A model generated the notes under the pieces. The model worked only from the letters and a program-made list of their open reading frames with translations. It did not search any database and was not told where the DNA came from. Positions 16,747 through 21,070 of a DNA stretch of 64,000 nucleotides are shown here, piece by piece; position 1 is the first letter of the stretch, and each line of letters starts with the position of its first letter. The stretch lies in assembly GCA_000165345.1 (NCBI GenBank), contig CM000436.1:800001-864000 (forward strand). Direction: 5' to 3'. The position numbers and the translations under genes were made by a program.

Positions 16747-18303
16747 ATGACAGAACAGAATAATGATTTAGATTTCAAAGATGACAATATCAAAGATTTG
16801 CAAAGAAAGGAGGATTTAGAGGCAAATATAATTTCTCAAAACTACAGTATAAAAATTAGAGATACATCAAGAAATATGAGTTATACGAATAATAGAAGAG
16901 ATGAAATTTTCATGCAGTTACAAACAGAATTGTTTGATATTCTTTTAGAGATTTATAACATAATTCCTACATGGGGCTCATTTAAAGAAAACTTCTATTT
17001 TCATTGGAAGAGAATTATTGGTGCCTGCAATTTCAAAGATCTTCATGCATATAGGCTAATTTTTAGATGCTTGGGAAATTTACGCCCTTCTTCAATGCCT
17101 ATATTTATTCTAAGGCCAATAATTAAACAGCTAGATGAGTATAGAAAAATTTCAGAGCCTGAATATTCTCCATCTAATTTTGAATTTAACCCAAATATAC
17201 ACAGGAGCTTAGCTACAACTTCTAATGGCCCAATTGCCATGCTACAAAATTCACATCCCGTTAAAACATGTGCCCAAATTCAAAGTAAAAAAGAAATATT
17301 GCTTGAAGATAAAATAGGACGAGATTTTTTCTCCGATAAATGTAATTCTAGCTTTTTTCATGAAATTATTAAAGAAAATGCAAAATATTCAGGATTAGTA
17401 TTATCAGGATTAAATGAAGCAAATGTCATTCCATTTTCGTTACTAGAAAATGATATATTCAACTCTGTGCCGTCACAAAATAATAGTAATCTAATTGATA
17501 ATATCTACAATTCAATAAATAAGAATTTCTATTTTTCGATAACTAGACAACAAAACGGTAGTTTTACAAATGATAATGAAAAATTAGCCGAAGACAAGAA
17601 GATAAAAAATGAGCTAATTGATAGAAAGGAGCACATTCTTTCGGACGATTATAATTCTAATGAATTTATTAATAATTCATTGGTTATTTCGAATAATTGG
17701 AATTCAAACTCTGCAGTCTCTTCGCCTTATGGTTCGGTTTGCACTGCACCAACACTTTCACCTACAGAATATAAAATTGAAGGGCCTATAATGGCAGCTT
17801 TTCAACATATTCAAGCAGTAGCAGTTGCAACAGCAGTTGCAAATAATTCTAAAAACAAACTAAACTCCGCAGGTAATTTATCAAACGAACAAAATACAAT
17901 ACAACCAAAGAAAAGACCGAGGAGGAATGGTGAGATTCAAGGGGTATATTTCGACAAAATACGCAAACTTTGGCGTGCAAACTGGAAAGAAAATGGACGT
18001 GTAAAAACAAAAGGGTTTTCAGTTTTTCAATTTGGAGATGAGGGCGCAAGACAAAAAGCTATTGAATATCGTAAGAAAATGGAAAAAGAATTCTATGTCG
18101 TGCCTAATACAAAGCTTTCTAGAAGTTCAAGCAATAGTGGAACTATCTATATTAATACAGAAAAGACGTTTCAAAACAGTATCTCACCTAAAAAAAAAGA
18201 TATTGAACTTAGTTCAAATTTAAATAACACTTTGAGCAGTTCAAAGCTAAACTCTGAAAACACAAAATTATCAGAAAACACCAACTCTAATTTTAACAAT
18301 TAA
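16747..18303 (+). CDS. ApiAP2 transcription factor (single AP2 domain near the C-terminus)
   Basis: The AP2/ERF-like domain reads RPRRNGEIQGVYFDKIRKLWRANWKENGRVKTKGFSVFQFGDEGARQKAIEYRKKMEKEF. The rest of the protein is low-complexity and N-rich, as is typical of apicomplexan AP2 factors. Confidence 0.8.
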   Translation: MTEQNNDLDFKDDNIKDLQRKEDLEANIISQNYSIKIRDTSRNMSYTNNRRDEIFMQLQTELFDILLEIYNIIPTWGSFKENFYFHWKRIIGACNFKDLHAYRLIFRCLGNLRPSSMPIFILRPIIKQLDEYRKISEPEYSPSNFEFNPNIHRSLATTSNGPIAMLQNSHPVKTCAQIQSKKEILLEDKIGRDFFSDKCNSSFFHEIIKENAKYSGLVLSGLNEANVIPFSLLENDIFNSVPSQNNSNLIDNIYNSINKNFYFSITRQQNGSFTNDNEKLAEDKKIKNELIDRKEHILSDDYNSNEFINNSLVISNNWNSNSAVSSPYGSVCTAPTLSPTEYKIEGPIMAAFQHIQAVAVATAVANNSKNKLNSAGNLSNEQNTIQPKKRPRRNGEIQGVYFDKIRKLWRANWKENGRVKTKGFSVFQFGDEGARQKAIEYRKKMEKEFYVVPNTKLSRSSSNSGTIYINTEKTFQNSISPKKKDIELSSNLNNTLSSSKLNSENTKLSENTNSNFNN

Positions 18304-18480
18304 ATTATAATTATATTTGGAAACATTAAGTATATAAAAATACTAGTTTTCTTTTTCTAATTTGTAAGAAATATCTATGTTTGAGGTTTGAATACTTTCC
18401 ATTATGAAATGGTTTTAGTTGGGAGTGTGCCTACCAATCCACTTTTGCGGAATTAATAATAAAAGAGTTCATATTTCAAC

Positions 18481-19078
18481 TTACGAAATGCCTGTGTGAG
18501 CACGCAAAATTTCATCAGTTGTTTTCCAAATTTTAGTGGTTAGTTGCTTCAATAATTCCTCTGCTTCCTCCTAAAATTTGTCATATAAAAATGTTGCTAA
18601 ATTTGATTACTTACCGGTGTGGGAGTATCTTCTTGACCTTCTGAGTTCTGGTTCAACTCCTCGCTCTCGTTGTCCTCTTGATCGTCATCATTCTCAATAT
18701 CATTAGACGACTGTATCAGCAGCAGCCTAAAAGCCAATAAATCGATTTGGTAATGAGTGAAAACTCACCTTTTATTATTGAATAAATTAGATAAATCTTG
18801 AATATCGTTTTCCAATTCTCCCAATGAAATGAAAGCTTGAAGTTTCTCTGCATTATAAAAATAAGGTTTCTTTCGCACAATATTCACGAATCCTTACCTT
18901 GTAAATGCGATTCTGGAGCTTGAACAAGAATCTCTCTCATTTTATTAACTGTTGACTTCAATTCTTCAACAATATTCGAGGTCCCTGCAATTGGTTCAAT
19001 TTTGCCAGGGGCTGCAGAAGAAAGTGAAAATATTATACAAAGAATAGTTAAAAAAAAGACTCTCATATCAAATGTCAT
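18481..19078 (-). CDS. Small secreted acidic protein of about 156 aa, four exons: 19078..18898, 18847..18769, 18726..18615, 18570..18481 (stop TAA at 18483..18481)
   Basis: Exon 1 (track ORF 18884..19078) encodes the signal peptide MTFDMRVFFLTILCIIFSLSSAAP and ends at CAAG|GTAAGG. Three introns of 50, 42 and 44 nt follow, with GTAAGG, GTGAGT and GTAAGT donors and AG acceptors. The frame is maintained across all junctions, giving ...ESHLQ/EKLQAFISLGELENDIQDLSNLFNNK/RLLLIQSSNDIENDDDQEDNESEELNQNSEGQEDTPTP/EEAEELLKQLTTKIWKTTDEILRAHTGIS*. Confidence 0.55.
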
Positions 19079-19176
19079 TATTTTACTTGTTATTTTAAAA
19101 GTGGTAGTATTAAAATTTCAGTTGCATGCACTTGCATTGCTGTGGGGAGTTGTTAATAATTGCGCATGAAAAAAAT

Positions 19177-20244
19177 TTAGTTAATTTTTGATTGGTAAAT
19201 TATTATATCAACTAATTTTTTAATTCCGATTGAAGATGGCGACTGGGGGAATTTTTCGCAGATAGAGAGACCCAAATCGCATACGTACAGTAATTCTTTA
19301 TCCCATGGTATTTTATTAAGATATTCTACTTCCATATTGTCACACATATCTTTAACTGAAGAATCATGCTCAGCATTTTTAAAAATCATCCCCATATTTT
19401 CAACAACCCCAAGGATATTTAAACCCACTTTCTTACAAAAATTAATTTCCTTCCTAACATCTTGTAGTGCAATTTCTTGCGGAGTGGTTACGATCAGAGC
19501 TCCATTCACATTTGAACCATTTAAATATGAAACTATAGAGAGATGCTCGTCGGAAGTACCTGGAGGAGTATCAATGATTAAGAAGTCTAATTCACCCCAA
19601 ACTACATCTGAAAGGAACTGTTTTATTAACCCATTTTTTTTTGGGCCTCTCCAAATTACAGCATCATCAGATTGAGGAAGTAAAAATGCAGTGGACATAA
19701 CTGAGAGATTATCATTAACATATACTGGGGACCAGCCATTCGCAGAAATGTGTACATCATTGCCTTGCACTCCCATCATTTTTGGTGCGGATGGGCCGCA
19801 AATATCGATATCTAAAAGCCCAACATTAAATTTTTTCGATGATAAACACCATGATATTTGCGAAGATATAGTTGATTTTCCTACACCTCCTTTACCAGAT
19901 AGAACCAAAATAATATTTTTTATTTTTGATAAGTTTTCGATATTCTCTGTAGGCTTTTTCTTTGCTTGTCCAGAAGCACATATTAGTGCATTTGGGCATC
20001 CTGCACAAGAGTCTGCGATTCCTGCATCTGGAGAATCAACTCCTACGCAATTGCCAATTTGAATATTAAAATGATTTTGGTATTTAGAATTAACTGAATC
20101 AGTTTTTATATAAGAAATGGAAAAAATAATAGATTTTAAATAGTTTATTGTTAACCTGGAAAATGTCTTGAAATAATCCTTAAATATAATACCAGATATT
20201 AGTCCACCGAAGAAAATTGCAATTCTATTAGAGGCTATCTTCAT
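19177..20244 (-). CDS. NBP35/Mrp-family P-loop ATPase (cytosolic Fe-S cluster assembly factor) with an N-terminal hydrophobic anchor
   Basis: The protein has an N-terminal CxxC cluster (DSCAGCPNALICASG), a Walker A/deviant P-loop (ILVLSGKGGVGKST), the ParA/Mrp core and a C-terminal CxxC (CPQS...). The first ATG (MKIASNRIAIFFGGLISGIIF) at about 20244 is followed by a hydrophobic segment. The track start at 20286 is TTG. Confidence 0.85.
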   Translation of the reverse strand: MKIASNRIAIFFGGLISGIIFKDYFKTFSRLTINYLKSIIFSISYIKTDSVNSKYQNHFNIQIGNCVGVDSPDAGIADSCAGCPNALICASGQAKKKPTENIENLSKIKNIILVLSGKGGVGKSTISSQISWCLSSKKFNVGLLDIDICGPSAPKMMGVQGNDVHISANGWSPVYVNDNLSVMSTAFLLPQSDDAVIWRGPKKNGLIKQFLSDVVWGELDFLIIDTPPGTSDEHLSIVSYLNGSNVNGALIVTTPQEIALQDVRKEINFCKKVGLNILGVVENMGMIFKNAEHDSSVKDMCDNMEVEYLNKIPWDKELLYVCDLGLSICEKFPQSPSSIGIKKLVDIIIYQSKIN

Positions 20245-20448
20245 AATTGCATTTAAAAGTAAATTTATAACAGAATTTTGGCGCAATAAAATTTCAAAAA
20301 AAATATTATTTCAATTATTATGAGTAGATTAGATAAAGATAAAGAGTTTTCAAGGTGAGTTATAGATATATAGAAAATAGCGTTTTATTCATTATTTTGT
20401 CTTAACTTTCAACTTTATTATTCAGTATTACCTTACCTCTAGGTTTTA

Positions 20449-21070
20449 ATGACATTTATTTATCATCCTTCGGGAGCAACGAGTTTGATACGCAAAGGCC
20501 TTCGGTAAGTTCATAATTCTTAATGTTAAACGTTCATACAATTCATTCTTGATTAAGGGCATTATTGAAATAGGTAAACATAAATTAATATTTGATAAGC
20601 AGAGTGCGGTACCAAGATATAAATTAGAATCGGATTTGGTATGTAGTTTTACCAACAATCTCGAAACAGGGGAATTCAAGAGCAATAAAAAGCCAAATTT
20701 ATCATCTTGGCACAATTTTCATGATCATGAAAAAACAGAGCAAGAAAAGTTCGAGTTGTTGGCTCTGCAATTACGAAATTCTACAGCCCCAGGGAGATTT
20801 TATAAGTCCGAGCATTTAACTAAAAAACAGATAAAGTTTAACTTCGGGGTCGTAATTGACGGAAACAAAATGAAAACTGGCCTATCTGATGATTCTTCAA
20901 CTTATAGATCTAATAAAAAGATATCTGGAATATCTCTTTTACATGAATTAGTCAATAATTCAGAAACCCAAAGATGGACGAATAAAAAGTACTCCGAGAT
21001 ACAAAAAACAAAGCTAAAGGGTGGAAAAAAGTGGTATAGAAAGCAGGTTTTAAAAAGAAATAGATATTAA
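20449..21070 (+). CDS. Hypothetical basic protein. Candidate two-exon model: exon 1 20449..20504, intron 20505..20604, exon 2 20605..21070.
   Basis: The 173-aa ORF 20549..21070 has no ATG at its start. An upstream ATG at 20449 (MTFIYHPSGATSLIRKGL) ends at CG|GTAAGT. An AG at 20603-20604 restores the frame into AVPRYKLESDL.... No family was recognised. Confidence 0.25.

Follow-up and report, generated by a model that had tools for sequence, protein, structure and literature searches.

The question raised by this locus is whether the short stretch of DNA between two long open reading frames (ORFs) on chromosome 8 of Cryptosporidium parvum holds a gene of its own and, if it does, where that gene ends and what kind of protein it encodes. 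The window, i.e. the whole 64-kb stretch that was analysed, has a G+C content of 32 % and is tiled by about 30 long uninterrupted ORFs, as expected because the C. parvum genome is compact and intron-poor; the locus is positioned at about 0.8 Mb on a chromosome of 1.3-1.4 Mb. It is flanked on one side by a 518-aa ORF with an AP2 domain (16747..18303, plus strand), an exact match to EAK89488.1 of C. parvum Iowa II that was identified as cgd8_3130 and is convergent with the gene discussed here, and on the other side by an ORF for a NUBPL/ParA-type P-loop NTPase (19177..20286, minus strand; stop codon 19177..19179), the "NBP35" of the first-pass annotation and hereafter the NBP35-like gene. Between the two, the first-pass annotation had placed a minus-strand gene ending at 18481, with four exons, three short introns and a secreted acidic product of 156 aa. 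The explanation that we favour as a whole, with a probability of about 0.85, is a real and already annotated gene of five exons for a secretory, acidic protein of three helices.

On the minus strand, exon 1 (18898..19078) spans 181 nt from the ATG at 19078, or 169 nt when counted from the genus-conserved ATG at 19066, and encodes the signal-peptide-like segment (19078..19013, residues 1-22) together with helix 1. As the first-pass annotation had pointed out, exon 1 alone appears in the ORF list, as a 64-aa ORF (18884..19078). Intron 1 (18848..18897; 50 nt, GTAAGG...GCAG, phase 1) is followed by exon 2 (18769..18847; 79 nt), which encodes EKLQAFISLGELENDIQDLSNLFNNKR; intron 2 (18727..18768; 42 nt, GTGAGT...TTAG, phase 2) by exon 3 (18615..18726; 112 nt), which completes helix 2 and also encodes NDIENDDDQEDNESEELNQNSEGQEDTPTP, an acidic linker of variable length; and intron 3 (18571..18614; 44 nt, GTAAGT...TTAG, phase 0) by exon 4 (18485..18570; 86 nt), which encodes EEAEELLKQLTTKIWKTTDEILRAHTGI, an amphipathic helix that is almost invariant, and ends two bases into a Ser codon. 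Up to this point the earlier description holds, as the three introns are found where it had put them, with the lengths and donors that it gave, each ending in AG and with the frame kept. From here on it does not: a fourth intron (18442..18484; 43 nt, GTAAGT...AAAG, phase 2) leads to exon 5 (18402..18441; 40 nt), whose first base closes this Ser codon and which goes on to encode GLVGTLPTKTIS, up to the stop codon TAA at 18404..18402. After splicing of the four introns the ORF comprises 498 nt in one frame, with consensus donors and GT...AG borders in every intron. The four-exon splice, with exons of 181, 79, 112 and 90 nt and an open frame of 462 nt including the stop, yields 153 aa and not 156. 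As for the start, the ATG at 19066 (MRVFF...) is the one conserved in other species and gives 161 aa, compared with 165 aa from the ATG at 19078; the signal-peptide-like N-terminus is kept with either choice.

A chain of this kind might in principle be no gene at all, but a chance join of short ORFs in AT-rich intergenic DNA. Among 300 dinucleotide-preserving shuffles, with donors restricted to GT[AG]AG[TG] and introns to 38-60 nt, none reached 150 codons (mean 40, maximum 92), against 165 in the real sequence. When any GT..AG pair was allowed, 4/300 shuffles also reached 150 codons, so mere joinability is weak evidence. The splice chain put forward in the first-pass annotation is real and above chance with consensus donors (0/300), although truncated at its 3′ end.

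The comparison across the genus is more telling. Besides C. parvum, ten orthologous loci were compared, namely those of C. hominis, C. tyzzeri, C. meleagridis, chipmunk genotype I, C. ubiquitum, C. canis, C. felis, one species from a Logan assembly, C. andersoni and C. xiaoi. Wherever the contig reaches far enough, the gene order is the same (Fcf2 - NBP35 - secreted-protein gene - convergent AP2). In the DNA alignment the four GT...AG pairs occupy identical positions and the ORF is intact in 11/11 species, including the gastric C. andersoni as well as C. xiaoi. Exon 1, from the conserved ATG, measures 169 nt in the 10/10 species with a complete 5′ end, and exon 4 measures 86 nt in all 11. Exon 2 (76, 79, 82 or 85 nt) and exon 3 (61-112 nt) vary, and exon lengths differ by multiples of three only, a constraint that is not seen in the lengths of the introns (42-134 nt overall; 47-72 nt for intron 1 and 43-71 nt for intron 4 across 11 species, 42-134 nt for intron 2 and 44-74 nt for intron 3 across species). 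Over the whole gene the share of variable columns is 50 % at first, 28 % at second and 88 % at third codon positions, and exons are better conserved than introns, with 57-82 % identity to distant species in exon 1 versus 32-67 % in intron 1. Between C. parvum and C. ubiquitum dN/dS is 0.099/0.812, i.e. about 0.12, for the whole gene. Taken from the alignment, these patterns show five exons and four very short GT-AG introns (50, 42, 44 and 43 nt in C. parvum) at positions kept genus-wide. They also refute the chance join, which is contradicted by the intact ORF in 11 species, by codon-like substitutions with a dN/dS of about 0.1, by the conserved synteny and by independent annotations in many species, and which retains a probability close to nil.

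Where the coding sequence ends depends on how the TAA at 18483..18481 is read. If the four-exon model represented the main product, this triplet would be the stop codon, the protein would end in ...AHTGIS after 153 aa, and the DNA downstream would be 3′ UTR. Such a model is mechanically valid, and several deposited models end at the same point, i.e. at ...TGIS (C. hominis 153 aa, C. meleagridis 149 aa, C. canis 144 aa and C. ubiquitum 139 aa). The same TAA, however, sits inside the fourth donor, TC|GTAAGT. When a phase-2 intron starting with GTAAGT stays unspliced, its donor is inevitably read as xxG-TAA, which is why the first-pass annotation and many automated annotations stopped at ...TGIS, and a retained intron 4 would yield exactly the 153-aa protein. 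Against the four-exon model, all 11 species keep the GTAAGT donor and, 43-71 nt further on, an AG acceptor: the donor context TCGTAAGT is invariant among nine aligned species and reads TC|GTAAGT in C. xiaoi and GG|GTAAGT in C. andersoni, while the AG acceptor is kept in 11/11. The 40 nt that follow are open and have the stop at the same position in 11/11 species, and they vary mostly at third codon positions (6/13, 1/13 and 12/14 variable columns at positions 1, 2 and 3), as exon 4 does (4/29, 2/29 and 25/28). This stretch is also 62-90 % identical to that of distant species, compared with 51-69 % for intron 4, and dN/dS between C. parvum and C. ubiquitum over exons 4-5 is 0.022/0.444, about 0.05. 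Finally, the exon-5 tail is carried by the C. parvum CPATCC model, RNA-seq-supported according to PMC8744675, and by the models of C. muris, C. andersoni, C. bovis and C. xiaoi. The codon-like variation, the fixed length and the fixed stop indicate that exon 5 is coding, so that support for intron 4 equals that for the other three introns, and it is very improbable that the four-exon form is the main product.

The gene as such is not new. The five-exon translation of 165 aa is identical to the deposited C. parvum protein QOY40074.1 (CPATCC_0003300 / CPHLJ_8g3135, UniProt A0A7S7RER2, 165 aa), which is named "Secreted protein", and C. hominis CUV07864.1 shares 96 % identity with it. The 64-aa ORF of exon 1, like the 518-aa AP2 ORF, has an exact match in the protein collection (C. 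parvum/C. hominis records), and it falls in a cluster of annotated Cryptosporidium proteins of 149-165 aa; the spliced product retrieves Cryptosporidium matches with E-values from 9e-87. Existing annotations of the gene cover C. parvum, C. hominis, C. muris and further species. It is a genuine, single-copy and already annotated gene, sited between the AP2 gene cgd8_3130 and the NBP35-like gene; current annotations of C. parvum and C. hominis already include both the gene and its five-exon structure, and finding the gene here is a rediscovery. CPATCC_0003300 and CUV07864.1 represent the same gene with the same neighbours, from which only the 3′ end of the first-pass annotation departs (153 versus 165 aa). 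The statement that the gene is invisible to ORF scanning is correct for the ORF list, but not for the current public annotations.

The stop codon of the secreted-protein gene is separated from that of cgd8_3130 by a spacer of 98 nt (18304..18401), which is presumably common to the 3′ UTRs of both genes. An Rfam scan of 17800..19600 returned one weak match to a bacterial sRNA (E = 0.21), taken as chance, and no RNA family. Separately, a conserved block was observed in the 3′ spacer at about 18372..18354 (ATTTCTTACAAATTAGAAA).

RNA support for the four introns is indirect, as it comes second-hand from general statements on annotations in papers that never name the gene: the paper on the CPATCC annotation, in which the 165-aa model is found, puts the RNA-seq support of its introns at 100 % (PMC8744675), and the 2015 reannotation, from which the 165-aa C. 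hominis model originates, demanded read-mapping support for new models (PMC4637869). In the supplement of the latter, cgd8_3130 and cgd8_3140 are present and cgd8_3135 is absent (PMC4637869). A literature search for cgd8_3135, CPATCC_0003300, CMU_023670 and related locus tags found no mention of them in the papers searched. The Logan contigs that carry the 64-aa ORF of exon 1 are genomic and not transcript-derived, and so provide no evidence on splicing; a degenerate pattern spanning the exon 4/5 junction, with which a spliced cDNA or an intronless relative was sought in metagenome contigs, gave 0 matches. With regard to intron content, introns are found in 10.8 % of C. parvum genes, which have 2-10 exons each (mean 2.6), and the 688 introns of the genome have a mean length of 99 nt (PMC4637869). 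This bears out the earlier description of an intron-dense small gene in a largely intronless genome. Four introns in a coding sequence of 0.5 kb correspond to about 8 per kb, compared with a genome average of about 0.1 per kb (computed from the table in PMC4637869), and at roughly 80-fold the genome-average density the label "intron-dense" is fair.

Upstream, the stop codon of the NBP35-like gene and the first ATG of the secreted-protein gene are separated by a gap (19079..19176, minus strand) that does measure 98 nt, as reported before, and that likely holds the promoter and the 5′ UTR. Two conserved blocks are found in it on the minus strand: CCCCAC (19147..19142), G-box-like on its reverse complement (TGTGGGG), and TGCATGCA (19130..19123), which corresponds to the AP2_1 motif BGCATGCAH. 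G-box-like and AP2_1 motifs have been defined as over-represented upstream motifs in C. parvum (PMC3734150), and C. andersoni and C. xiaoi, too, have CCCCAC and CATGCA in this order ahead of the ATG. As TGCATGCA occurs once in the 64-kb window, versus about one occurrence expected by chance, only its position and its conservation across species count as evidence; the conserved pair within the gap supports a dedicated promoter there. The first-pass annotation went further in stating that the promoter must sit in the gap, which makes a plausible location but not a forced one. The gene might instead lack a promoter of its own in the gap and be expressed from a dicistronic RNA with the NBP35-like gene, or from a start site inside that gene: both genes lie on the minus strand, only 98 nt apart, and 201 polycistronic transcripts have been reported by long-read RNA-seq in C. 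parvum sporozoites (PMC11761812). This arrangement is unlikely in our judgement, as the two genus-conserved blocks match the two best-known families of over-represented upstream motifs in C. parvum, a content to be expected of a dedicated promoter. An own promoter within the 98-nt gap is thus plausible from the motif content.

The product appears to be a signal-peptide-bearing, acidic and helical precursor of 165 aa (161 aa from the conserved ATG), as inferred from its sequence. By inspection, the N-terminus reads M(TFDM)R, then VFFLTILCIIFSL, then SSA|AP, with A22 invariant, and this pattern is kept in all orthologues. The Kyte-Doolittle hydropathy profile reaches 2.46 in its single peak (residues 7-21) and stays at or below 1.6 in every other 15-residue window. 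Inspection and simple calculation agree in indicating a basic n-region, an h-region within 7-15 residues, small residues at -3/-1 and no further span, i.e. a signal-peptide-like segment such as had been claimed before. The same segment could alternatively serve as an uncleaved signal anchor, which would place the product, as a type II protein, in the membrane of the ER or of a secretory organelle. The C. meleagridis orthologue does bear the UniRef name "Integral membrane protein", the hydrophobic stretch of 15-16 residues is strongly so (hydropathy 2.46), and a helix is predicted by AlphaFold at residues 5-20. However, the segment begins at residues 5-7, straight after a short n-region with Arg or Lys, and is followed by S-S-A (ending in the invariant A22) and by Pro or Gly, in agreement with the -3/-1 rule for signal peptidase; moreover, an h-region of 15 residues is short for a membrane span, and orthologues elsewhere are labelled "Secreted protein" or "Signal peptide-containing protein". 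We consider the anchor quite unlikely, and cleavage as a signal peptide remains the preferred reading.

The predicted mature part lacks cysteine, has a mass of about 15.9 kDa and is acidic, with a pI of 4.3. AlphaFold models from two alignments place helices at residues 34/36-52, 56-93 and 124-150 (pLDDT about 80-89) and give residues 87-121, the linker, a pLDDT below 50. The acidic stretch highlighted in the first-pass annotation is present in this linker, but it varies in length across species (in C. andersoni it is about 19 residues shorter), so that it is better described as a variable spacer than as a conserved core. The amphipathic C-terminal helix that had also been proposed is borne out, with a muH of 0.49-0.63 that was matched by 0/2000 shuffles; this helix and the GLVG.(L/I)P tail are the most conserved part of the protein.

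Judged by HMMER, Pfam and PDB sequence searches, the protein family is confined to the genus Cryptosporidium. The profile HMMER search of the spliced product against 1.84 billion representative proteins found only Cryptosporidium relatives: of nine matches, five bear a Cryptosporidium name or share a cluster with proteins that do, including C. muris CMU_023670 and those of C. andersoni, C. serpentis, C. bovis and C. xiaoi, and the other four are Logan ORFs that read as fragments of the secreted-protein gene. In no species did this search retrieve another full-length member of the family; everything that it returned was an orthologue or a fragment of one gene. A Pfam scan of the 165-aa product gave nothing above threshold; below it there was noise of coiled-coil or acidic type, CENP-R and COG5_C among it. 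The label "AATF leucine zipper" attached by UniRef to the C. xiaoi orthologue was judged spurious, being comparable to this noise. A profile search of the PDB had no significant match, and none of the 580 pattern matches to metagenome contigs was confirmed as a relative. Fold searches matched generic up-down helical bundles (the FAT domain, the vinculin tail, the N-terminal domain of apolipoprotein E and de novo designed bundles), and the AlphaFold model may pack the signal peptide into its bundle, so that it gives no functional clue.

The orthologues of the gastric and bovine clades (C. muris CMU_023670, C. andersoni cand_020430 and C. serpentis, 146 aa; C. bovis and C. xiaoi, with N-truncated models of 114 aa) share the five exons (169 nt for exon 1, 86 nt for exon 4 and 40 nt for exon 5), the intron phases, the signal-peptide-like N-terminus, the motif AFISL..ELE and the C-terminal module KIWK(T/A)T(D/E).IL.A.TGI.GLVGA.PPQ. 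They differ from the C. parvum gene in that their identity is just 46-54 % and their introns are longer (51-134 nt), and in the gastric species the acidic linker is much shorter.

The secreted multigene families of Cryptosporidium (MEDLE, SKSR, FLGN and WYLE) are recognized by a signature motif and by several paralogues, which are often subtelomeric. The 165-aa sequence contains none of the MEDLE, SKSR, FLGN or WYLE motifs. Export motifs of the PEXEL/TEXEL type (RxLxE/Q/D in Plasmodium, RRL in Toxoplasma) are expected within a few tens of residues after the signal peptide. Neither RxLx[EQD] nor RRL occurs in residues 23-70, where the nearest candidate, R48-E-I-L-V-Q, has Ile and not Leu at its third position. 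The dense-granule (GRA) proteins of Toxoplasma and the dense- and small-granule proteins of Cryptosporidium are small and lineage-restricted, with a signal peptide, no recognisable domain, amphipathic helices and acidic low-complexity stretches. In its predicted features our product resembles them; Pfam and HMMER detected no sequence relationship to them. Unlike many rapidly evolving effectors, the gene is single-copy and under strong purifying selection genus-wide.

Under the favoured reading, the N-terminal hydrophobic segment would direct the precursor into the ER, where cleavage near SSA|AP would release a soluble, cysteine-free acidic protein of about 16 kDa with a pI of about 4.3. The mature protein would consist of three predicted helices, with a flexible, D/E-rich linker of variable length between helix 2 and helix 3, and helix 3, nearly invariant and amphipathic, would together with the GLVGxLP tail form the most likely binding surface. 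In a speculative last step, the strong purifying selection on this C-terminal module may point to a conserved partner in the parasite, located in the secretory pathway or in a secretory organelle, rather than to a fast-evolving target in the host; candidate destinations are dense or small granules, micronemes, the vacuole and the ER. Going further, the gene might be a core genus-specific secretory component whose C-terminal helix and GLVGxLP tail dock a conserved partner, for example in the biogenesis of secretory organelles or at the host-parasite interface, and whose four ancient introns have been kept because expression needs splicing. We put this extended proposal forward as a tentative one that is more probably wrong than right by a wide measure. 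In a minor variant, retention of intron 4 would switch between a tail-less form of 153 aa and the form of 165 aa.

As a discovery the gene carries little weight, having been annotated already. Its structure does bear on the annotation of the genus, since the apparent stop within the conserved GTAAGT donor has left at least eight species with orthologue models that are truncated, mis-spliced or too short at the N-terminus. The faulty models are those of C. tyzzeri, C. ubiquitum, C. canis, C. felis, C. meleagridis, chipmunk genotype I and C. bovis/xiaoi, together with some C. hominis assemblies, and a single uniform five-exon model fits every one of them. For the biology of the parasite, a single-copy, genus-wide and strongly constrained orphan with a putative signal peptide would be a sensible but not outstanding choice for tagging in work on the secretory organelles of Cryptosporidium.

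Public records disagree on the gene models for orthologues of the five-exon gene, which were compared at seven orthologous loci from other Cryptosporidium taxa (L002, L004, L005, L007, L008, L009 and L012). The C. tyzzeri model (129 aa) runs on into intron 3, the C. ubiquitum model (139 aa) uses an incorrect acceptor within exon 2, and the C. felis model (144 aa) has an incorrect C-terminus. Exon 5 is missing from the models of C. canis, C. meleagridis and some C. hominis, while those of the chipmunk genotype and C. bovis/xiaoi are without the signal-peptide part of exon 1. A single five-exon structure accommodates every one of these orthologues. All four intron positions are also shared by the orthologue of a Cryptosporidium-like organism on a 1616-nt contig (L006; Logan SRR31860995), despite only about 61 % identity to C. 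parvum; within this orthologue, the KIWKTTDEILRAHTGISGLVG segment is identical to that of C. parvum.

Within 19066..19078, it is the ATG at 19066 that other species conserve, and the annotated start of the gene may therefore lie four codons too far upstream.

Upstream of the ATG, on the minus strand, CCCCAC (G-box-like when taken on the opposite strand) is followed by the AP2_1 motif (T)GCATGCA, the two together occupying 19123..19147; both the motifs and their order are conserved across all species examined. In locus coordinates, the motif pair lies at about 1418..1450 in L011 and about 1264..1310 in L012, and GCATGCA is present twice upstream of the C. xiaoi orthologue. Across the entire 64-kb window TGCATGCA occurs once, with about one occurrence expected by chance.

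The mechanical ORF of the neighbouring NBP35-like gene (19177..20286, minus strand) has a TTG start and encodes 369 aa; NBP35-like genes called at orthologous loci encode 346-355 aa, a length that fits an ATG at about 20244. A TTG start was also assigned to the Fcf2-domain ORF (20549..21070, plus strand). Its 173 aa, compared to mostly 206-212 aa for the orthologues in NCBI models (175 aa in one C. canis model), suggest an extra upstream exon or an alternative start, and possibly one more short intron.

On the other side, 98 nt separate the stop codon of the five-exon gene from that of cgd8_3130, the AP2 gene that converges on it. This spacer contains the conserved block ATTTCTTACAAATTAGAAA (about 18354..18372), which may represent a 3'-end processing signal common to both genes.
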